Shown: piece by piece, positions 4,910 to 63,772 of the stretch
Numbering within the stretch: position 1 is the stretch's first letter
Layout of the letters: every line of letters starts with the position of its first letter
Origin: Opitutia bacterium
GTDB lineage: Bacteria; Verrucomicrobiota; Verrucomicrobiia; Opitutales; T3Sed10-336
DNA length: 64,000 bases
Reading direction: 5' to 3'
Assembly: GCA_003558065.1 (NCBI GenBank)
Contig: PWMU01000050.1
Location: forward strand, 11,656 to 75,655
The notes under the pieces: generated by a model
Databases searched by the model: none
What the model was told of the DNA's origin: nothing
What the model saw: the letters and a program-made list of their open reading frames with translations, nothing else
Position numbers and translations under genes: made by a program

Positions 4910-5314
4910 TCAGGGTAGGGTTGATAGCTGGCGAACAATCGGGATGTCGGCATCTGCCAGATCGAGTGTGATGAGTTCCTGTGGCGAAACCCAACGAATG
5001 GCTTCGTGTTCAATGGCACGCGGCACTCCGTCGTTGAGCCGTGCGGAGAAAGGCAGCAGGCGGATGCAGCTGGTGTTGTCGTGATGGACGACTTCGGTCA
5101 ACGGACCCATCACCGAAATAGCCACGCCCAGTTCCTCCCATATCTCCCGCCCAAGCGCCTCCGAGGGCTCCTCTCCGGGTTCCACTTTTCCTCCCGGGAA
5201 CTCCCATTTCCCGGCCAAGGCTTTCCCTTGCGGCCGCCTGGCAACCAGGTAGCGCCCGGATTGATCCGAGATCACAGCACAAACCACACGTAATTCTCCC
5301 TCGATCTCAGCCAT
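4910..5314 (-). CDS. mutT: NUDIX hydrolase, MutT-like
   Basis: Nudix box GGKVEPGEEPSEALGREIWEELGV. The ATG at 5314 (MAEIEGELRVVCAVI...) is preferred over track start 5473, whose extra 53 codons are P/R/S-rich and cover the repeat block. Confidence 0.75.
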   Translation of the reverse strand: MAEIEGELRVVCAVISDQSGRYLVARRPQGKALAGKWEFPGGKVEPGEEPSEALGREIWEELGVAISVMGPLTEVVHHDNTSCIRLLPFSARLNDGVPRAIEHEAIRWVSPQELITLDLADADIPIVRQLSTLP

Positions 5315-53492: not shown

Positions 53493-54869
53493 TCAGGTGA
53501 GGCCGTATTCTTCCGGTAGATACGCGTTCGCGGGTATTTCTCCGGCCATGGCTTCGCGCATTTCGGCTTCGGTTTCGGGCAACTCGGTGACGGCGGATTC
53601 CATGCGTCCCAGCCACCGGGCCTCCCGGGGGGTCAGGTTCAGTGCCGCTTTCCGGTGCGCCCGGTCAAGGATCCGCCAGCCCGCACGGGCCGCGCGGATC
53701 GTTCGTTCGTAGGTTGTGGCTCCCGTCAGGATCTCCTCCGAAATTTCCAGGACGATGTCGGGCCGCAGCACGTAGGCCTGCGGGTCGAGAGAAGCATCGG
53801 ACGAGGCCAGCCAATCGCGCAGCGAGCGCGCGGCCTCCGGGGAGTCGTCCAAGGCGGCGTTGGCCAGCCGGCAATCATAGGCGAGCTGTTCCATGGATAC
53901 CACCGGTGCGTAACCGCTGAGCAGCCGAACATTGGCTACGGATTCGTTCGACCAGCAGTCGCAGACAGCTTGCGCGATGTTGCCGAGCGGGCTGGAGTGC
54001 GCGCAGGCGGACGAGCGGCCTTCCATCGAAATGGGAACCCCGGCGATGGCCTTCAGGAAGGGGCCTTCGTAGGCGCAGTCCTTGCTCGGCCCGCGGGCCC
54101 CCGTTTCAAAGGCGACCAGGCTTCGGGGAACGGAAATCACCCGTACCAATGCGGCGAATACCTTCGGGATCATCCCTTTCCACGCGAGCGTCATGGCCGT
54201 ATTGGCAAAGCCGCACGCCGTGTCCCCTGAAGGCACGACGTCCGTATTCCGGCAGCTCCGGACGATCTGTTCCCAGAGAAAGCCCATGTCGCGCGCGCCG
54301 AGAACCCCCAGGGCGAAAACGACGCGGCGGAGGTCCGCATTGACCAGGGCGTCATCACAGACCTCCTTGCCGCCCGTCGATTCAATGGCCAGAAGATCGG
54401 CGCCCGCCCGCCCGGCGCCGTCGAAGAAACGCACCATTTGCTCCCAGTGCTCGCCCCGGCGCATGAGCGGCGGCCGCCGGAATTCACGGGTGTCGTTGGG
54501 AGTGACCCGCAACGCCGTGGCGAGGCCGTGCCGATCGCTGAAGGCGGCGCAGTTCTCGGCGAGGATCCGGGTGATTTCCAGCCCCCATTCCGGAGTCTGC
54601 GTCATCGGCGGAAGCGTTTCGAACTCGACCACCACCGCGGGAACTTCCAGTTCGACCGCGTGGCGCAAAACGCCCCGGACCATCTCCTCGTACTGCCGCC
54701 GGATTTCATCCCAGTTGCGCCGGGTGACCTCGATTCCGGGCAGAGTGAAGTTGATTTCCGGAATCATGCGCCCCCCGCCGATTTCCACGCCTCGGCCGCA
54801 GGTGACCGGATGCGGTGCCCGTCCGAAGAGGAACGCGTCCAGCGATTCGACTGCCGGCTTGGTATTCAT
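53493..54869 (-). CDS. mtaB: Methanol:corrinoid methyltransferase MtaB-family protein
   Basis: It is colinear with my memory of Methanosarcina MtaB: IPEINF, IESTGGKEV, SGDTACGFANTAM, ISVPRSLVAFETGARGPSKDCAYE, MEGRSSACAHS, CDCWSNESV, LAYDCRLAN, DPQAYVL. ATG 54869. Confidence 0.75.
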   Translation of the reverse strand: MNTKPAVESLDAFLFGRAPHPVTCGRGVEIGGGRMIPEINFTLPGIEVTRRNWDEIRRQYEEMVRGVLRHAVELEVPAVVVEFETLPPMTQTPEWGLEITRILAENCAAFSDRHGLATALRVTPNDTREFRRPPLMRRGEHWEQMVRFFDGAGRAGADLLAIESTGGKEVCDDALVNADLRRVVFALGVLGARDMGFLWEQIVRSCRNTDVVPSGDTACGFANTAMTLAWKGMIPKVFAALVRVISVPRSLVAFETGARGPSKDCAYEGPFLKAIAGVPISMEGRSSACAHSSPLGNIAQAVCDCWSNESVANVRLLSGYAPVVSMEQLAYDCRLANAALDDSPEAARSLRDWLASSDASLDPQAYVLRPDIVLEISEEILTGATTYERTIRAARAGWRILDRAHRKAALNLTPREARWLGRMESAVTELPETEAEMREAMAGEIPANAYLPEEYGLT

Positions 54870-54891
54870 TGACCCGGGTGCGGGCGGATCG

Positions 54892-55527
54892 CTACGAGGC
54901 GACCAGTTTCCGGGCGATGCCGACCGCCGTGGCGGCACTGTCTCCGTAGGAATCGGCGCCGATTTCTTCGGCGTATTCGCGGGTGATCGGCGCGCCGCCG
55001 ATCATAATCTTCACGTTGCCGCGCACACCGGCTTCGTTGAGGGCCTCGATGGTGTTCTTCATTGACGGCATCGTCGTGGTCAGGAGAGCGGACATCGCCA
55101 CGATATCCGCCGATTCGTCCCGAATGGCTTCGATGAATTTCTCCGCTGAGACGTCGACACCGAGGTCGATGACTTCGAATCCCCCGCCTTCAAGCATGGC
55201 CGCGACCAGGTTCTTGCCGATGTCGTGAAGGTCGCCCTTGACGGTTCCGAGTACGACGCGTCCCTTCGGTTTTACCCCGGACGCCGTTAACAGGGGCCGG
55301 ATCTTCCCCAGGGCGCCCTTCATGGCGCGTGCGGCGATGAGCAACTCGGGCACGAAGAAATCGTTGGCTTCAAAGCGGCGCCCAACCTCGTCCATCGCCG
55401 GGATCATGTAGTCGTTAACCAGTGTTTGCGGATCCGTGCCCGCAGCCAGGGCTTCGTCCGTGACCGACCGGGCGGTATCGGCGTCGCCGTTCAGGACGGC
55501 GTCGTAAAGTTTGGTCCATTCGCTCAT
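54892..55527 (-). CDS. mtaC: Corrinoid (B12-binding) protein, MtaC/MtbC-like
   Basis: AAGGAG then ATG 55527. B12-binding-2 cap domain, then GTVKGDLHDIGKNLV (DxHxxG), ...MSALLTTTM..., GGAP. Confidence 0.85.
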   Translation of the reverse strand: MSEWTKLYDAVLNGDADTARSVTDEALAAGTDPQTLVNDYMIPAMDEVGRRFEANDFFVPELLIAARAMKGALGKIRPLLTASGVKPKGRVVLGTVKGDLHDIGKNLVAAMLEGGGFEVIDLGVDVSAEKFIEAIRDESADIVAMSALLTTTMPSMKNTIEALNEAGVRGNVKIMIGGAPITREYAEEIGADSYGDSAATAVGIARKLVAS

Positions 55528-55830
55528 TGAGTTATCTCCTTTTTCTCCAGTGGTGGACGCGGGACGTGACAGGACTCCAACTCTACCGGGTCCGGCGCCG
55601 GGGGTCTGCGCGAGGATTGTCAACGAAAGCGCAGATGTTGTCCGGCGTGCCGGTAGCTCTGAAATATACTTCCCTGCATCAAGTTTTCGGATTCTCCTGC
55701 CGCCCGTCTTCTAATTCATTCCCCTCTTGAGAGGGGGGACCAGCCGCAAGGCTGGTGGGGCGTGTCCGTTGCGCCGGCGATACCCATCGTTCCATCGATC
55801 TACTCGCTATATTCGAGTACCAGTCGTTCC

Positions 55831-55861
55831 GGGAGTTTGTCGGGCTTCGCCGACAGGCTGC
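55831..55861. repeat. Short hairpin repeat, copy 2, abutting the stop codon of the HTTM gene
   Basis: gggagtttgtcgggcttcgccgacaggctgc. Stem CTGTCGG/CCGACAG with a GCTTCG loop. Confidence 0.55.
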
Positions 55862-56862
55862 TAGTGATCCGGCAGAGCGGCGGATTCGGGTTGGTTTTCC
55901 CGGGGAGGGCCGGTCTGCGGAATTCCTGTTTCGGCGTAGAGGGTTGAGGAGAACGAGGTCCAGTCCTGTTTGAAGGCGAAGCTTCGCTGCAGGCCCAGGT
56001 AGGCATTTGATTGGTCGACCACGCCGGAACGATCAGATTGGTCGAGCACACCGAAATGATCATTGATGTTGGCCGCGAGCATCAGGCAGAGGGCGAAACC
56101 GGCAAAGACGTGGCGGCAACGTTCGGCGCGTATGAAGGCGCGTGTGGGGAGTTCGTGGGATGGCGGGGGAGCGTAAAGGATTTCCGGGGCGATTCTTGAG
56201 TTGATGCGGAGTTTTCGTTCCCGTATCCGTTTCCTAATGTCGCTCACCTGCTTCCAGAACCGGGGCGGCAGGAGGGCGGCCAGCCCGGCCAGAACCGCCG
56301 CCGGCAGGAGACCGGGCTGAAAATTCAGGGCCTGGCCCGCCTGATACAGGGCGAAGGAAAAGAGGAGCAGGAACAGCTGGATCGAGAGTCCCGCGGTTGC
56401 GGGCGAGCAGTAAAGACTGCTGTCGTCCCGGGTGCGCACGCGCAGACGCAGGTCGAGCGACCAGCGTGCGCCCAGGGGGAGGAGCCATCCCCAAAACAGG
56501 AGAAGGAGCAAAAGCCGGTCCCCGGCGGTCAGGACCAGCCCGTTCTGCCAATTGAGGGAAACGAGAAGAATCCAGGAAACAAAGGCTGCCGTCCGGGTTC
56601 GCCAGCCGAAAATCAACAGTACGGCGAAAACCGCGGCCAGCCCCATCAGCGTCGTGCCGAGGAATCCGGAATCGTTCAGAATCGACAGTTGAAAATGCCA
56701 CGGCGAAACGGTCTGGACGGTTCCATCAATCACCGTACCCCTGTTGACAACCCGAAGCCCGCTCAGGCGAGCCAGCAGATCAGCCAGAAGAACGGTTCCC
56801 AGCAGAACACGAAAAAGGGCGAGGGATCTGAGATCCAGGCCGAAGACAGGGCGCAGGTTCAT
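55861..56862 (-). CDS. HTTM-domain (vitamin-K-carboxylase-like / SdpB-like) integral membrane protein
   Basis: LDLRSLALFRVLLGTVLLADLL opening typical of HTTM domains, with multiple TM segments. Confidence 0.55.
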   Translation of the reverse strand: MNLRPVFGLDLRSLALFRVLLGTVLLADLLARLSGLRVVNRGTVIDGTVQTVSPWHFQLSILNDSGFLGTTLMGLAAVFAVLLIFGWRTRTAAFVSWILLVSLNWQNGLVLTAGDRLLLLLLFWGWLLPLGARWSLDLRLRVRTRDDSSLYCSPATAGLSIQLFLLLFSFALYQAGQALNFQPGLLPAAVLAGLAALLPPRFWKQVSDIRKRIRERKLRINSRIAPEILYAPPPSHELPTRAFIRAERCRHVFAGFALCLMLAANINDHFGVLDQSDRSGVVDQSNAYLGLQRSFAFKQDWTSFSSTLYAETGIPQTGPPRENQPESAALPDH

Positions 56863-57108: not shown

Positions 57109-58842
57109 TTGCAGGAATGGGGGGAACGGATTATTTTAGAAGCCGTGAGTGGACGACGACAGGAGAGAAACCGGGAGCCCGATAACCGACGCCGCGAGGA
57201 GGGGCCCGCCGACGCGCCGTTGAATCCCGAGGCGCGGCTCGAGCGGATGTCGGCGTTGCAGTTGATCGACCTGGTTTCCGGGCAGATGCGGGGGGCGGAA
57301 GCGGCGCCGCACCGGCCCTTGCGTCACCTCCGCTATCGCGTGCAGGAGCTCGAGGAGATTCGCGAACAGGCACAGGGTGCTTTGGCGGAGCTGAACGAGG
57401 CGGTGGAAAAGTTGCGCGCTCCGGCGTTGAGGCTGGGGACCTTGCTGCGGCGGATCGGCAGGGACCGGGCATTGATCTGCGTCGGCGGGGGTGAGTATGT
57501 CTGCAACCTTGACCCGTCGCTTCCCGAGGCGGTGCTGGAGAGCGGGATGCGGGTGCTCCTCAACGAAGCCTACGCGGTGACCGATTCCTTCGGCCTCGAC
57601 AAGAGCGGGCCGGTGGTCCGGTTGACCGAGGCGCTGTCCGACGGGCGCCTTCGGGTTGGCCAGGAGGCCGGAATATCGGATTCGGTGGTCATTCTCTCGG
57701 ACGCGTTGCGGAAGGAGACCTTGAAACCCGGCATGGAGTTGCGTCTCGACGCCAATCAGCGCGTGGCGGTCGAAATCGTCGCGCCGGCCCGAAAGTTCGA
57801 CCGGTCGCTGTCGACGGTCGAGCCGATTCTCTGGAGTGATATCGGGGGGCAGGATTCGGCGGTTCAGGCGATCCGCGATTCGATCGAGATGCCGATTCTG
57901 CACGCAAGCCTTTTCGAGCGTTTCGAGCACCCGGTACCCAAGGGCTTCCTGTTGTATGGACCGCCGGGATGCGGGAAAACCTTGTTGGGCAAGGCCACGG
58001 CTCATAACCTGCGCCGCCAGATCGAGGCCGAAACCGGCGAGGACCGGCCTGAATATTTCCTCAGCGTCAAGGGCCCCGAGATTCTCAACATGTGGGTCGG
58101 CGAATCGGAACGGCAGGTTCGCGAACTGTTTGGCCAGTGCCGGGAGAAGGCCGAAGAGGGGCACTTGGCGTTTCTCTTCATTGACGAGGCCGAGTCGGTT
58201 CTCGGCACCCGTCACGGGGGTCGCGTCGGGAACGCGATCATTTCGACGCTGGTACCGATGTTCTGTGCGGAGATGGACGGGATGGAAGCGTTGCGCAATG
58301 TCGTGGTGATCCTGGCGTCCAACCGGGCCGACCTCATCGACCCCGCCATCCTCCGTCCCGGCCGGATCGATCGCAAGATTCGCGTCCGTCGCCCGAACCG
58401 CGAGGCGGGCAGGGAAATTTACAGCATTTACCTGAACGAACGGCTTCCCGTGGCGGAAGAGCGCGACCGTCTAATCGAGGCGGTGACCGAAGCCCATTTT
58501 GCGGAGAGCGAGGAAAACCGCTTCCTCGAGGTCGGCTACCGAAGCGGACGCAAGGAATACCTTCACCGCGGCGATCTTGCAAGCGGCGCGATAATCGCCG
58601 CCATCGTGGAGCGGGCCAAGGAGCTGGCGATCAAGCGGAGCGTGCTTACCGGCTCGGAGTCGGGGATTACACGCGAGGATTTGCTGACCGCTTTCGAGCA
58701 CGAGTACCGCGAGAACGAACTTTTCCCCCCGACCGATATTACGGAGGACTGGCTCAAACTCACCGATTTCGATCCGGAGAACGTCGTGCGATTGACCCCT
58801 TACCGCCAGCGTAGCGACAGGGAACGGCAGACCTCGATATGA
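57109..58842 (+). CDS. mpa: Proteasome-associated AAA ATPase (Mpa/ARC homologue)
   Basis: Walker A LLYGPPGCGKTLLGKA, Walker B AFLFIDEAESV, ILRPGRIDRKIRV. N-terminal heptad segment LRYRVQELEEIREQAQGALAELNEAVEKLRAP, then an OB-like region, colinear with my memory of M. tuberculosis Mpa. The track start is TTG 57109. GTG 57145 or ATG 57247 are equally possible. Confidence 0.85.
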   Translation: MQEWGERIILEAVSGRRQERNREPDNRRREEGPADAPLNPEARLERMSALQLIDLVSGQMRGAEAAPHRPLRHLRYRVQELEEIREQAQGALAELNEAVEKLRAPALRLGTLLRRIGRDRALICVGGGEYVCNLDPSLPEAVLESGMRVLLNEAYAVTDSFGLDKSGPVVRLTEALSDGRLRVGQEAGISDSVVILSDALRKETLKPGMELRLDANQRVAVEIVAPARKFDRSLSTVEPILWSDIGGQDSAVQAIRDSIEMPILHASLFERFEHPVPKGFLLYGPPGCGKTLLGKATAHNLRRQIEAETGEDRPEYFLSVKGPEILNMWVGESERQVRELFGQCREKAEEGHLAFLFIDEAESVLGTRHGGRVGNAIISTLVPMFCAEMDGMEALRNVVVILASNRADLIDPAILRPGRIDRKIRVRRPNREAGREIYSIYLNERLPVAEERDRLIEAVTEAHFAESEENRFLEVGYRSGRKEYLHRGDLASGAIIAAIVERAKELAIKRSVLTGSESGITREDLLTAFEHEYRENELFPPTDITEDWLKLTDFDPENVVRLTPYRQRSDRERQTSI

Positions 58843-58912: not shown

Positions 58913-60448
58913 GTGGAGATACAATTCGGTATAGAAACGGAGTACGGAATCAGCCGGCAGCAGGAGCAACCGATCGACGTGGTGGCCGAGTCCATCGCGC
59001 TGGTCCGGAGCGCCGTTTCGCCGGGCGTGCGCATGTGCTGGGACTACTCAAAGGAGGACCCGCATCTCGATATGCGCGGGTTCCGGGTCCAGGAATTGCG
59101 GCAGGACACCGACGAAACCTTTTATTCGGCCGAGGACGTACGGCGCCAGCTGACTTTCCGCGAGATCAAAAGCGACTTGGTGCTCTCGAACGGAGCCCGT
59201 TTCTACAACGATCATGCCCACCCGGAGTACTGCACCCCGGAATGCACCACGCCGCTTGAGATCCTCCAGCAGGAAGTGGTGGGTGAGCGCATACTGACGG
59301 GATGTGCCCTTGCCCTGCAGGAAAAGACCGGAGTGCCGGTTTTGCTTTATAAAAACAACACCGACTTTTTCGGGCACAGTTACGGCTGCCACGAGAATTA
59401 TTTGATCCCGAGAACCCTCCCTTGGGCGAAGCTCTCCGAGAATATTCTGGCATTCCTGGTTACCCGGCAGCTCTATTGCGGAGCGGGAAAATACGCATGG
59501 GAGGAAGAGGACCGGTTTCTCAAGGGAAGATTCCAGATTTCCCAGAGAAGCGATTTTTTCACAGTGCTCCAAAGTGTGGATACGATGCAGCGGCGGCCGC
59601 TGATCAATACGCGGGACGAACCCCACGCGGACGCCGGACGGTTTCGGCGTTTTCATGTTATCCTGGGCGACTCCAACCTCTCTCCGTACGCGGCCTACTT
59701 GAAGATTGGAGTGACCGCGCTGGTTCTGCAGGCTCTGTGCCGCGCCGGACCGGGAGCGCGGGTGCCGCGACTGGACAAACCGATCGATGCGGTGAAAGCG
59801 ATCTCTCGCGACACCGCTTTCCGCTGGGAGATCAACCGGGAGGACGGCCGCCCGACAAACGCGATCGAGGTCCAACGGAGTTACCTGATGCTGGTCCGCC
59901 GTTACCTGTTTGAGAGTGACGGCGAGGAATGGCGGCGCGTTACCGATGCCTGGGAGGAGATTCTGAATGATCTTGATGCCGATCCGCTGTCCACCGCGGA
60001 TCGCCTGGACTGGAGCGCCAAGTACCGGCTCATCGAGGACTTTCGCGACCGGGAAGGCGTCGAGTTGGACGATCCCTGGGTGCGGAGCCTCGACCTTGCC
60101 TACCACCGTCTGGATCCGGACGAGGGCCTTTACCTCAACCTGATGGACCAGGGGGCGTTTCGGCTGCCTTATTCCGCCGCAGAGATCTATGAAAAGGGGC
60201 TGGAGCCGCCGGCGAGCACCCGTGCGGCGGTACGGGGGCTTTGCGTGAAGAAGTTCGGCCCCCGGATTTATGAAACGCAGTGGGAGCACCTGGGGTTCCA
60301 GGGTGAAACCACCGGCCGCTTCATTCTCGATCTGCGCGACCTGTTTGCTCCGGGGGATATCGCGAAAGCGATTCGGTTTATTGAGGGCACCGAACGGGTC
60401 GACGATTTGAGAGCGCTTCCGTTTGCAAAAGAGCGAAATCGCGGTTAA
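58913..60448 (+). CDS. dop: Dop-like Pup-ligase-family enzyme (deamidase/depupylase homologue)
   Basis: GTG start, VEIQFGIETEYG. The insertion RMCWDYSKEDPHLDMRGFRV matches the Dop-specific loop (Mtb Dop RTRWDYEVESPLRDARGF, from memory). HAHPEYCTPEC, YKNNTD..GHSYGCHENY, FQISQRSDF, INTRDEPHAD. Confidence 0.85.
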   Translation: MEIQFGIETEYGISRQQEQPIDVVAESIALVRSAVSPGVRMCWDYSKEDPHLDMRGFRVQELRQDTDETFYSAEDVRRQLTFREIKSDLVLSNGARFYNDHAHPEYCTPECTTPLEILQQEVVGERILTGCALALQEKTGVPVLLYKNNTDFFGHSYGCHENYLIPRTLPWAKLSENILAFLVTRQLYCGAGKYAWEEEDRFLKGRFQISQRSDFFTVLQSVDTMQRRPLINTRDEPHADAGRFRRFHVILGDSNLSPYAAYLKIGVTALVLQALCRAGPGARVPRLDKPIDAVKAISRDTAFRWEINREDGRPTNAIEVQRSYLMLVRRYLFESDGEEWRRVTDAWEEILNDLDADPLSTADRLDWSAKYRLIEDFRDREGVELDDPWVRSLDLAYHRLDPDEGLYLNLMDQGAFRLPYSAAEIYEKGLEPPASTRAAVRGLCVKKFGPRIYETQWEHLGFQGETTGRFILDLRDLFAPGDIAKAIRFIEGTERVDDLRALPFAKERNRG

Positions 60449-60457
60449 ATTTTCTTT

Positions 60458-60637
60458 ATGGCTGATCCAACCAGACGAGTAAAACCAACCGCCCCCTCGC
60501 CGGGCGGGGGAGGAGACGACGGAGGCGGTCCTTCTTCCCCGAAAGTCAACAAGCCAAAAACGGAGGAGCTTCTCAAGAAGATGCGCAAGGTCGATCCTGA
60601 CCAGTCCCGCCGCTACCGGCAACGGACCGGGGAGTGA
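60458..60637 (+). CDS. ubact: Pup-like small protein modifier, UBact type (59 aa)
   Basis: Not in the ORF track (<60 aa). ATG 60458 lies 9 nt after the dop stop, and the TGA is at 60635..60637. MADPTRRVKPTAPSPGGGGDDGGGPSSPKVNKPKTEELLKKMRKVDPDQSRRYRQRTGE has a Gly/Pro-rich disordered N-terminal half, a basic helical C-terminal half and a terminal Gly-Glu. It occupies the exact pup position between dop and prcB. Confidence 0.8.
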   Translation: MADPTRRVKPTAPSPGGGGDDGGGPSSPKVNKPKTEELLKKMRKVDPDQSRRYRQRTGE

Positions 60638-60830
60638 CCGGCAGGTGATCCCGCCGCTTTCCCGCCTTGCGTTTTGCTCCCCTAACGGGGATGTTGCCCG
60701 TTGCGGGTCTGCGGGTGCGGGTTTCAGACGCCGGAATCCTTATTCTCTCCCACACCTGCGAAACCCGGCCCTCAACCCTTGCCCGTCCTCGACACCCTGA
60801 AACCAGAAACCTGACGCCCGCGCATCCGCC

Positions 60831-61592
60831 ATGAACGGAGACTTCCTCTCCCTCCTCTCATCGAATCCGTTTTCCGGCCTTACGGTCGGCGAAAACTGTC
60901 CCCAGTTGCTCGAGGCGACCACGGTGTTCGCCTTCCATTTTTCCGAGGGCGTGGTCATGGCGGGCGACCATCGCGCGACCGCTGGGAACGTGGTGTTTTC
61001 CGATCGAACGGAGAAGATAATCGAGCTGGACAATCAGTCTCTGATCGCCATCGCGGGATCGCCGGCGGTGGCTTTCGAGATGGCACGAACGCTGCAAACG
61101 ACTTTCGAGTTCTACCGGCGAAGCCAACTGCAGGTACTCAGCCTCCCGGCCAAAGTCCGGGCGTTGTCGCGTCTCCTCCGCGACAACCTCCCGGGAACGC
61201 TCCAGGGGGTGGGCGCGGTTGCGCCGCTCTTTGCGGGGAGGGAGCCGGACGGCGATTCACCGCCGGGCATTTACTACTACGATCCGCTGGGCGCGCAGTT
61301 CGAGGCCGCCGGTTACGCGGCTTCCGGGTCCGGGTCCGGCAGTATTCGCAGCGTTCTTCACTACTTGACCCAATGGGGGAATCCGCGACCGGAGAAAAGG
61401 GATCGCGGCGAGGCGATCAACCTGGCCAACCGGCTCCTGCTGACCGCCGCCCAGTTCGATACCGCCACCGGCGGGGTCGATCCGTCCCGGCAGGTTTTCG
61501 CCACCATCCGGCTCCTCACCGCCGACGGCATTCATACGGTGACCGAGAAAGAGCAGGCGGCGGCCTGGAAGAAGGGAGGGGCCAATGATTGA
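60831..61592 (+). CDS. prcB: Proteasome beta subunit (PrcB) with a 29-aa propeptide
   Basis: ...QLLEA|TTVFAFHFSEGVVMAGDHRATAGNVVFSDRTEKII. Numbering from the first Thr (codon at 60918..60920) gives Thr1, Asp17 and Lys33, the canonical Ntn-hydrolase triad. SGSGS is present further on. Confidence 0.85.
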   Translation: MNGDFLSLLSSNPFSGLTVGENCPQLLEATTVFAFHFSEGVVMAGDHRATAGNVVFSDRTEKIIELDNQSLIAIAGSPAVAFEMARTLQTTFEFYRRSQLQVLSLPAKVRALSRLLRDNLPGTLQGVGAVAPLFAGREPDGDSPPGIYYYDPLGAQFEAAGYAASGSGSGSIRSVLHYLTQWGNPRPEKRDRGEAINLANRLLLTAAQFDTATGGVDPSRQVFATIRLLTADGIHTVTEKEQAAAWKKGGAND

Positions 61593-62310
61593 AGAACCGT
61601 ACCGGTGGCTCGAAGCGGTGGCCAACCGTCGCGAGTACATCCAGGACCAGCTCAGCGGTGCCACGCCGGTATTCGCCGTTTCCCGTCCCGAAGGGGTTTT
61701 CCTGCTCGGTGCGGGCCCCGGACGGTCGAAAGTGTTCGAGATCTACAACCGTCACGGCATGGCCGCCCTCGGCAATCCGGTCGATATCGAGAAGCTGCGC
61801 CAGGCAGTCATTGAAACCGCTCACCTCGAGGGGTTTAACCGGTCGGCGGACGATGTGACCCTGCGGCGCCTGGTCGGGTTTTCCATAAGTAATTCCCTCA
61901 AGAGCGCGTTCGAACAGATCGTCGCCGCGCCGCTCATTGTCGAGGCCCTCTTTGCCGAATGCGGGGCGACCCGCGAGGAGGACCTTCTCGTGCGGGTCCG
62001 CTTCGACGGGAGGCCGGAATACGCGACGGACGGTGTCTGCCTCGCATTTCCCGACCGTGATCGCGAGCGCGCCGCCGGCGAGTGGTTGCGGGGCCGATTG
62101 AGCGACTCGGACGGCCTCGGCCGGGTACGCGGGCTTTGCCTCACGGCCTGGTCGGCCCTGGTGGACGGCAAGGAGGATTTCGAAGCATTGAAGGTTCAGG
62201 AACCCCTTCCTTCCTCGCTCGCGAAACACGGCCTGGAAAGTGCCCTGATCGACCGGGCGAGCCCGGGGCCGGCCCAGTACCGGTCGCTTGCCGAAGGGGA
62301 GTTTCAGTAG
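61585..62310 (+). CDS. prcA: Proteasome alpha subunit (PrcA)
   Basis: 8-nt overlap with prcB. 241 aa with no N-terminal Thr. PVFAVSRPEGVFLLG...KVFEIYNRHGMAALGNPVDIEKLRQ is consistent with bacterial alpha subunits. The call rests mostly on position and weak similarity. Confidence 0.7.
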   Translation: MIEEPYRWLEAVANRREYIQDQLSGATPVFAVSRPEGVFLLGAGPGRSKVFEIYNRHGMAALGNPVDIEKLRQAVIETAHLEGFNRSADDVTLRRLVGFSISNSLKSAFEQIVAAPLIVEALFAECGATREEDLLVRVRFDGRPEYATDGVCLAFPDRDRERAAGEWLRGRLSDSDGLGRVRGLCLTAWSALVDGKEDFEALKVQEPLPSSLAKHGLESALIDRASPGPAQYRSLAEGEFQ

Positions 62311-62362
62311 GGCGTCCCGGGCTTGCGAGGCAGGTCCGGGCGCGCATAATCCGGGAGCGGGC

Positions 62363-63772
62363 ATGAATCACGGAAACGGCAATGGAAAGCGGGTGATCGG
62401 CCTGGAAACCGAATACGGTTGTCTTGCCGACCGCGACCTCGACCTGAGTCAGGTTTTGACCGAGGTTCGGAACTGGGTGTTCGAAGGCGGGCGCTTCGGG
62501 ATGATCGACCTGTATGAGCGCGAATGGGATGAGCCGGCGGGAAACGGGGGGTTTCTGTTCAACGGCGGGAGGCTCTACATCGACATGGGCCACATCGAGT
62601 ACTGCACGCCCGAATGTCTGAACGCCCGCGACGCCGTGCGTTACGACCGGGCGGGGGACCGGTTGCTGCAGACGGCAGTCCGGGCGCTGGGCTACGAAGG
62701 GCGGGTATTCTTCATTCGGAACAACATCGATCATCACACCGGCGCTACCTTCGGGTGCCATGAGAACTTCTCGATGGACCGTCTGGCTCCTTTCAGTGAA
62801 GCCAATATTCTTTCACTGCTCGCGTTCCTGACGCTCCGCCTCCTGTACACGGGAGCGGGTCGCGTGGGGGCCGCGGGGGGGCGTTTTTCGGTCGGTTGGC
62901 CCGACCAGGAGCCCGTCTTCGAGGGATTTCAATTGAGCCAGCGGGCGGATTATGTGCAGAACGATTTCTACGAGTGGGTGCAGCACAACCGTGCCATCGT
63001 CAATACGCGGGACGAGCCGCTTGCGGACCCTCTTGCTTACAGACGCCTTCACCTGCTTCACGGCGATACGAATGTCTTTCCGGCTACCACTTTCCTTAAG
63101 CTCGGGACGACCAGGCTGGTTCTTGACCTTCTCGAAGCCGATGCGCTTCCGCCGGTGGTCCTGCAGGATGCGGTGAGCGCTTTGCGCCGGATTTCGCGCC
63201 AGACCGATCCTCCCTGGCGGGTGCGTGACAGCCGTGGGCGGGAACGGGATGTGATTGATCTTCTGGACCGTTACCGGCGCGCGGCCGCCAGGTGCTTTTC
63301 CGGGCGCAATGAGGAAACGGATACGCTTCTGGAATTATGGGGGGACACCCTTGAGGGCCTCGCCCGCGGTGATGCCGGGGAGCTTGCCGGCCGAATCGAC
63401 TGGGTCGGCAAGCGCGAGCTGCTCGATGCTTTTCGCCGCGAGCAGGGGCTGGGTTGGAACGATCCCTGGATGCAGTCCCAGGATCTTGAGTTTCATCACA
63501 TTGATCCCCAGCGCGGACTCGGCTGCGCGTTGGCGGATTGCGACGGATTTTGGGCGACCGGTTGTATTGAAAATGCCATGACAGAGCCGCCCGAGGGATC
63601 AAGGGCCGGGGCCCGGAGCCGTCTGATGCGGGAAATTGAAAAGTCCGGCGGCCGTTATCACCTCGACTGGGACAGGGTCAATTTCCCGGGCGGCCGGACC
63701 TTTTGCATGAAGGATCCCTTCGAGACCCGCGCCGATCACCAGGAGACGTCCGGGTCGACGTCCTTTTCGTAG
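62363..63772 (+). CDS. pafA: PafA-like modifier ligase (Pup-ligase family)
   Basis: KRVIGLETEYG. No Dop-type loop. FLFNGGRLYIDMGHIEYCTPEC, GATFGCHENF, FQLSQRADY, VNTRDEPLAD. The C-terminal FCMKDPF is like Mtb PafA LCKDPF (memory). ATG 62363 is preferred over track start 62288, which overlaps prcA. Confidence 0.85.
   Translation: MNHGNGNGKRVIGLETEYGCLADRDLDLSQVLTEVRNWVFEGGRFGMIDLYEREWDEPAGNGGFLFNGGRLYIDMGHIEYCTPECLNARDAVRYDRAGDRLLQTAVRALGYEGRVFFIRNNIDHHTGATFGCHENFSMDRLAPFSEANILSLLAFLTLRLLYTGAGRVGAAGGRFSVGWPDQEPVFEGFQLSQRADYVQNDFYEWVQHNRAIVNTRDEPLADPLAYRRLHLLHGDTNVFPATTFLKLGTTRLVLDLLEADALPPVVLQDAVSALRRISRQTDPPWRVRDSRGRERDVIDLLDRYRRAAARCFSGRNEETDTLLELWGDTLEGLARGDAGELAGRIDWVGKRELLDAFRREQGLGWNDPWMQSQDLEFHHIDPQRGLGCALADCDGFWATGCIENAMTEPPEGSRAGARSRLMREIEKSGGRYHLDWDRVNFPGGRTFCMKDPFETRADHQETSGSTSFS

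Follow-up and report, generated by a model that had tools for sequence, protein, structure and literature searches.

The window analysed here (64,000 nucleotides of contig PWMU01000050.1, from an Opitutia bacterium) contains, at positions 60458-60637 of the forward strand, an open reading frame that very probably codes for UBact. UBact is a small protein tag, disordered over much of its length, which would be the non-actinobacterial counterpart of Pup and would act in a homologous tagging route. We give this reading a probability of roughly 0.85. The frame opens with an ATG at 60458, its TGA stop ends at 60637, and the product is a peptide of 59 amino acids, MADPTRRVKPTAPSPGGGGDDGGGPSSPKVNKPKTEELLKKMRKVDPDQSRRYRQRTGE; when re-derived from the window, both the frame of 59 codons and its translation were identical to those of the original prediction. 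The proper annotation of the feature is 'ubiquitin-like protein UBact'. As the operon shows, this verrucomicrobial genome carries a complete set of genes for Pup-like tagging and for the proteasome, with a tag whose glutamate terminus would be ready for ligation.

Genes of this kind are already known. Iyer et al. (2008; PMC2588565) described Pup orthologs that terminate in G[EQ] and are encoded, in verrucomicrobia and nitrospirae, beside proteasome genes and PafA paralogs, and set out the chemistry, in which the terminal Glu is activated and ligated to substrate lysines. The frame in the window is a routine member of this family, known since 2008 and named in 2017, for which both Pfam and NCBIfam hold models. 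The name UBact is said to come from the 2017 work of Lehmann, Udasin, Livneh and Ciechanover (BBRC 483:946-950).

Membership of the UBact family

Both family profiles recognised the window peptide far above their cut-offs, Pfam PF20513 with 79.8 bits (cut-off 27.8; profile positions 3-43 of 43) and NCBIfam NF033388 with 82.5 bits (cut-off 35; profile positions 2-54 of 54). Among 5.8 billion protein clusters we found 139 UBact homologs, all of them (139/139) with PF20513 and several bearing the NCBI name 'ubiquitin-like protein UBact'; the best match among the protein clusters is 81% identical to the window peptide. When genomes were scanned, one for each GTDB species, at least 542 stretches were found to encode a relative. 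The closest genomic relative lies in a Verrucomicrobia MAG (PXDC01000378.1, positions 5001-5177 of the locus, hereafter L001), with 95% peptide identity by tblastn. Neither this peptide nor that of the window is present among about 15 billion proteins, and therefore such frames are still often left uncalled; in the lineage of the window, gene callers seem to overlook UBact frames systematically. We also looked for a second copy of UBact in the window and found none.

In the alignment of 25 homologs, the segment K44-G58 (KVDP.Q..RYRQRTG) varies only at positions 48, 50 and 51, G17-G19 do not vary at all, and the last residue is always E or Q. In the window the C-terminus reads RRYRQRTGE and is followed by TGA. 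We fetched 81 related loci, and in all of them (81/81) the frame is intact and ends in RYRQRTG[E/Q] immediately before the stop, with E in 41 and Q in 40; the frame or the C-terminal G-E/Q has been lost at 0 of these 81 loci.

The window peptide shares with the family a length of about 58 amino acids, a Gly-rich N-terminal half, the nearly invariant C-terminal half (EELLK.MRKVDPDQ..RYRQRTG[E/Q]) and the site directly 5' of prcB, in an operon with the proteasome ATPase and two genes of the Pup-ligase family. The family occurs outside Actinobacteria, in Gram-negative phyla, and the host is likewise verrucomicrobial here, an assignment based on the nearest relatives, as no rRNA gene was found in the window. 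Compared with the family consensus, the peptide starts with MADP instead of MPD and has N31 in place of E, K34 in place of N and S50 in place of A; compared with L001, it has one additional Gly codon. In nothing of substance does it differ from the family. The identity originally proposed, a UBact-type modifier encoded between a Dop-type gene and prcB, is thus supported by the profile matches, the homologs, the terminus, the operon and the 81 loci, together with the selection data and the structural model given below.

In composition, the N-terminal half is of low complexity and rich in Gly (GGGGDDGGG at residues 16-24), and the C-terminal half contains 10 K/R and 5 D/E, as strongly basic as had been predicted; the pI of the whole peptide is 10.2 (4.05 for Pup of Mycobacterium tuberculosis). 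An AlphaFold2 model computed with the family alignment, of only moderate confidence (mean pLDDT 66.6), leaves residues 1-34 without secondary structure and places two short helices at residues 35-44 and 47-57 (pLDDT 70-78), in agreement with the disordered N-terminal half and the helical C-terminal half anticipated from the sequence. The shape so predicted fits the 'bihelical unit plus extended tail' proposed for Pup-like tags (PMC2588565).

The proteasome operon and its enzymes

UBact lies within a row of six co-directional genes on the forward strand, in the order ATPase, Dop-type, UBact, prcB, prcA and PafA-type. The first (57109-58842) encodes a proteasome-associated AAA+ ATPase of the Mpa/ARC type, with an N-terminal coiled coil, two OB domains and an AAA module (Pfam Prot_ATP_ID_OB_N, Prot_ATP_ID_OB_C and AAA). 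It scores 426 bits with TIGR03689 pup_AAA (actinobacterial equivalog cut-off 504.75), and its residues 74-215 align to residues 66-207 of Mpa (3m9b/3m9d). Since the family alignment sets in near residue 72, the start codon of this gene is in doubt.

The two members of the Pup-ligase family were told apart by alignment to proteins of known structure. The protein encoded at 58913-60448 (+) matches PF03136 with 479 bits and is of the Dop type, since TIGR03688 (Dop) gives 416.7 bits against 327.4 for the PafA model, and its alignment with Acidothermus Dop 4b0r (340.6 bits; PafA 212) spans the full length. This alignment covers a Dop-loop segment of about 40 residues (residues 40-80 of the window protein), and PafA structures align to the protein only from residue 79. 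It has the motifs GIETEYG, YNDHAHPE(Y), GCHENY and NTRDEPHAD, the catalytic Asp being in YNDHAHPE. These features point to a predicted de-conjugase, which would also be a deamidase where the tag ends in Gln. The last gene of the row (62288-63772, +) encodes a protein that matches PF03136 with 367.4 bits and whose assignment to the PafA type comes from structure alignment, given that the NCBIfam scores do not discriminate (Dop 281 bits, PafA 269): residues 35-480 align to residues 11-461 of Corynebacterium glutamicum PafA 4b0t with no insertion of the size of the Dop loop, Dop structures align only from residue 82, and the aspartate of its LYIDMG motif corresponds to the YLDVG position of PafA (L-Y-x-D-x-G). 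It is the predicted UBact-protein ligase. Its most upstream start is a TTG at 62288, which overlaps prcA by 23 nt, and an in-frame ATG at 62363 gives MNHGNGNGKRVIGLETEYG. The latter is probably the true start, because homology to PafA begins only at residue 34.

The 20S core would be formed by the products of prcB (60831-61592, +; beta subunit, TIGR03690 146 bits, PF00227 82.8 bits), in which a propeptide precedes the active-site threonine of TTV (...LEATTVFAF), and of prcA (61585-62310, +; alpha subunit), which overlaps the end of prcB by 8 nt. The score of prcA with TIGR03691 (55.4 bits, E 5.7e-15) is below the actinobacterial cut-off, and the gene is syntenic in related loci. All five enzyme and proteasome proteins in fact score below the actinobacterial equivalog cut-offs of NCBIfam, as expected for a gene set from outside that phylum. 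The operon proteins other than UBact are 78-91% identical to those of L001.

The arrangement is widely shared. In 79 of the 81 loci prcB follows UBact directly, and the full order ATPase-Dop-UBact-prcB-prcA-PafA is common to other Verrucomicrobiota, to Poribacteria and to a MAG of Latescibacterota. In the loci of Chthoniobacterales and Udaeobacter, UBact-prcB-prcA stand alone within the 10 kb fetched, and no ATPase or Pup-ligase-family gene was found within 5 kb on either side in L011, L029-L033, L036, L042-L048, L052-L059 and others. The ligase genes that go with these Chthoniobacterales and Udaeobacter loci must be elsewhere in the genome or absent.

We asked whether the terminal residue follows the presence of an adjacent dop gene. 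Where dop adjoins, the tag ends in E in 29 loci and in Q in 10, and where it is not adjacent the counts are 10 E and 25 Q. Both residues occur within single orders, and E is found in 21 of 21 Poribacteria; no strict rule emerges, and lineage confounds the association, which we do not retain.

Two observations concern the C-terminus of the ATPase. A 'YRQRS' sequence in its tail was considered as a mimic of the UBact terminus and discarded as a coincidence, being found only in the window and its closest relative (1/33 loci). Separately, UBact-linked ATPases (window positions 58800-58842; L001-L072) end in a short basic tail whose last two residues are a small one and then V or I (...QTSI, ...SPVI, ...GVV). 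The C-terminus of mycobacterial Mpa carries a motif of the GQYL type. Going by these endings, docking of the UBact-linked ATPases onto the 20S core may differ from that of Mpa.

Relationship between UBact and Pup

Pup of Actinobacteria is reportedly the subject of work by Pearce et al. in 2008. Apart from the resemblances it listed, the original prediction held the window peptide to be unrelated in sequence to Pup, and this is correct at the level of HMMER and BLASTP but goes too far at the level of profile-profile comparison. The Pfam Pup model (PF05639) gave no match to UBact even at E <= 10, and BLASTP against M. tuberculosis Pup, whose sequence we checked against PDB 7px9_G, gave no alignment. 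The sole PDB match named 'Pup' (E 7.7) was set aside, as it aligns to an affinity-tag segment. With hhalign, the UBact alignment paired residues 34-59 with residues 35-64 of M. tuberculosis Pup (P = 4.6e-4, at a probability of only 33%), and a profile of 183 UBact sequences against one of 100 Pup sequences gave 44 co-linear columns (P = 7e-4, at a probability of only 26%), which pair UBact 16-59 with Pup 9-64, from the Gly/acidic block through the last residue. This match scored 21.4, and 200 Pup profiles with shuffled columns all scored lower (mean 8.9, sd 1.9, maximum 16.4), a null that may be too lenient because shuffling of columns breaks up low-complexity runs.

Several features recur in both proteins. 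Like UBact, Pup (PF05639, Actinobacteria) has about 60 amino acids, is intrinsically disordered, begins with a Gly run followed by acidic residues, has a C-terminal segment of two helices and a terminal G-[E/Q], and is encoded between dop and prcB; homologs of Dop, PafA, Mpa and PrcAB are all present here. The poly-Gly/acidic N-terminal block, a helix start of the form T-[ED]-[ED]-L-L and a terminal R-x-Y-x-Q-[RK]-x-G-[EQ] are common to the two. The differences are in charge and at the very end: the C-terminal half of Pup is acidic (2 K/R, 12 D/E) whereas that of UBact is basic (10 K/R, 5 D/E), and Pup ends in GGQ or GGE whereas the window peptide ends in TGE.

On this comparison we favour the view that UBact is a remote, charge-inverted relative of Pup, it being possible that convergence under a shared enzyme groove, or low-complexity effects, account for the likeness. 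A stronger form of this view takes UBact to be no modifier in its own right but a divergent, charge-inverted Pup ortholog, gained along with the entire set of Pup-proteasome genes; it would work by the same mechanism, and the difference would be one of classification alone. We consider this form to have close to, but not quite, an even chance. Among the Pup orthologs recovered by Iyer et al. (2008; PMC2588565) were such proteins, which share the G[EQ] terminus and were predicted to have a bihelical core, the co-linear profile match exceeds the best of its shuffled controls, the Gly/acidic block, the helix start and the terminal motif are held in common, and Dop and PafA have clear homologs in the cognate enzymes. 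Against this must be set the silence of PF05639 and of BLASTP, the low hhalign probabilities (26-33%), a shuffling null that may be too lenient, the possibility that a shared enzyme groove has imposed the likeness, and the fact that Pfam and NCBIfam hold the two families apart.

One may go further and suppose that UBact, together with its enzymes, constitutes a tagging system of inverted charge which shares its ancestor with Pup and is now functionally orthogonal to it, the ligase groove and the coiled coil of the ATPase having co-evolved with the basic tag so as to reject Pup, and the Dop-type enzyme being purely an eraser in this lineage with its terminal Glu. We put this forward tentatively, as a conjecture for which the odds are rather unfavourable. 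If it were true, the operon would provide a ready-made second pair of ligase and tag, of use for instance in orthogonal proximity tagging, and a system in which to study the co-evolution of a disordered tag with its readers.

Proposed tagging route

Returning to UBact as a tag that works in the manner of Pup, we infer each biochemical step of the route from the homology of the enzymes to those of the Pup system. Pup itself is ligated through the side-chain carboxylate of its terminal residue. By analogy, the groove of the PafA-type enzyme (62288-63772) would bind the two-helix segment of UBact, residues 35-57, and the enzyme would use ATP to phosphorylate Glu59, the terminal residue, on its side-chain carboxylate and would then join the tag, by an isopeptide bond, to the epsilon-amino group of a lysine in the substrate. 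The Mpa-like ATPase (57109-58842) would use its N-terminal coiled coil to capture the tag, thread the disordered N-terminal half of UBact and feed the tagged substrate into the PrcAB 20S core, and the Dop-type enzyme (58913-60448) would act as a de-conjugase that removes the tag. Since UBact of the window ends in Glu and not in Gln, prior deamidation would be unnecessary, and for this reason the Dop-type enzyme is expected to serve here as de-conjugase or eraser.

Some details of the Pup system may not carry over. The pI of the tag is 10.2 against 4.05 for Pup, and therefore the binding modes of Pup may not transfer directly; the helical region of UBact is shorter than that of Pup, which would leave less surface for binding to the coiled coil; and the penultimate motif is TG where Pup has GG. 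We examined whether the coiled coil of the ATPase has changed its charge to complement the basic tag. Its 30 residues include 5 basic and 7 acidic ones (net -2), against 6 basic and 5 acidic in Mpa (net +1), but this shift from +1 to -2 is modest and too weak to be taken as complementarity.

A different function for the peptide is conceivable, namely that of a non-covalent cofactor of the proteasome (an adaptor of the ATPase, a regulator of the gate or an assembly factor) which is never ligated. That it stays tightly linked to prcB and prcA even in genomes that have no neighbouring ligase gene, those of Chthoniobacterales and Udaeobacter among them, would be in keeping with such a role, and no experiment in which UBact is conjugated to any protein was found in the searchable literature, where we encountered only citations and reviews. 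However, an E or Q stands just before the stop in 81 of 81 loci, as one would expect of a tag that is ligated through a terminal Glu, with Gln requiring deamidation, and two enzymes of the Pup-ligase family with their catalytic motifs co-occur with it. Moreover, the loci without ligase genes span only 10 kb, so that these genes may lie elsewhere in those genomes. We regard a cofactor that is never ligated as improbable.

Selection on the frame and its start region

The UBact frame is a real gene under clear purifying selection. Over the last 32 codons, comparison of the window with L001 gave a pS of 0.50 and a pN of 0, and the mean pN/pS over all pairs was 0.21, so that the dN/dS-type analysis supports the frame as first proposed. 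The entropy at codon positions 1, 2 and 3 was 0.54, 0.23 and 1.44. Nucleotide identity between the window and L001 is 89% within the frame, with a single in-frame indel of 3 nt (the Gly codon mentioned above), drops to 49% directly after the UBact stop and recovers at the start of prcB. That the frame is a chance opening in a GC-rich intergenic region, giving no protein, can be dismissed: although it has only 59 codons, has no Shine-Dalgarno sequence and yields a peptide which, like that of L001, is missing from about 15 billion proteins, the comparative data refute this, as both curated profile cut-offs are exceeded, variability falls mostly on third codon positions with a pN of 0 for a pS of 0.50, the sole indel against L001 keeps the frame, conservation collapses after the stop, and 81 of 81 loci, from several phyla, retain the frame.

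The Dop-type frame ends at 60448 and a spacer of 9 nt separates it from the UBact ATG, which is preceded by TTTTCTTT. The spacer contains no GGAGG-like motif, so that its length and its want of a Shine-Dalgarno sequence are as described in the original prediction. The position of the start is conserved with the homologs (MADP in the window, MPDP in these). From the missing Shine-Dalgarno sequence, translational coupling to dop had been proposed, and this argument does not hold. Cores resembling a Shine-Dalgarno sequence (4-mers) precede 6 of the 38 long open reading frames in the window, which is the background rate (0.20), and for this reason the missing motif is not evidence for coupling; its absence is a genome-wide trait. 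Verrucomicrobial UBact genes with no gene upstream, for example that of L081, also have no Shine-Dalgarno sequence, and the UBact loci of Poribacteria and Latescibacterota have clear AGGAG motifs. Nor is the spacing of 9 nt conserved: L001 has 13 nt upstream of UBact, other Verrucomicrobiota have tens of nt, and Poribacteria have about 200 nt. Re-initiation across the 9 nt between dop and UBact is possible.

Downstream, UBact is separated from prcB by 193 nt (60638-60830), a gap which we considered as a potential site for a regulatory element and which turned out to be an ordinary spacer with no functional element detected. An Rfam search of the whole window gave no match, the folding of the spacer is unexceptional (z-score -0.85; 41 of 200 shuffles fold as well), and terminator-like sites number 8 where 8.2 are expected by chance. 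The identity of the spacer to L001 is the 49% given above, and its length is within the range of the family.

Genes upstream of the operon

Further genes lie on the opposite strand just upstream of the proteasome operon. Nearest to it, at 55861-56862 (-), an open reading frame of 333 amino acids encodes an apparent multi-pass membrane protein with no match in Pfam at E <= 0.001. On its other side, at 53493-55623 (-), there is a homolog of MtaB, the B subunit of methanol-cobalamin methyltransferase (PF12176, 518 bits, full length), together with an overlapping gene for an MtaC-like corrinoid protein that has B12-binding_2 and B12-binding domains. Genes of the MtaB/MtaC type serve methanol:corrinoid methyl transfer in methanogens and acetogens.
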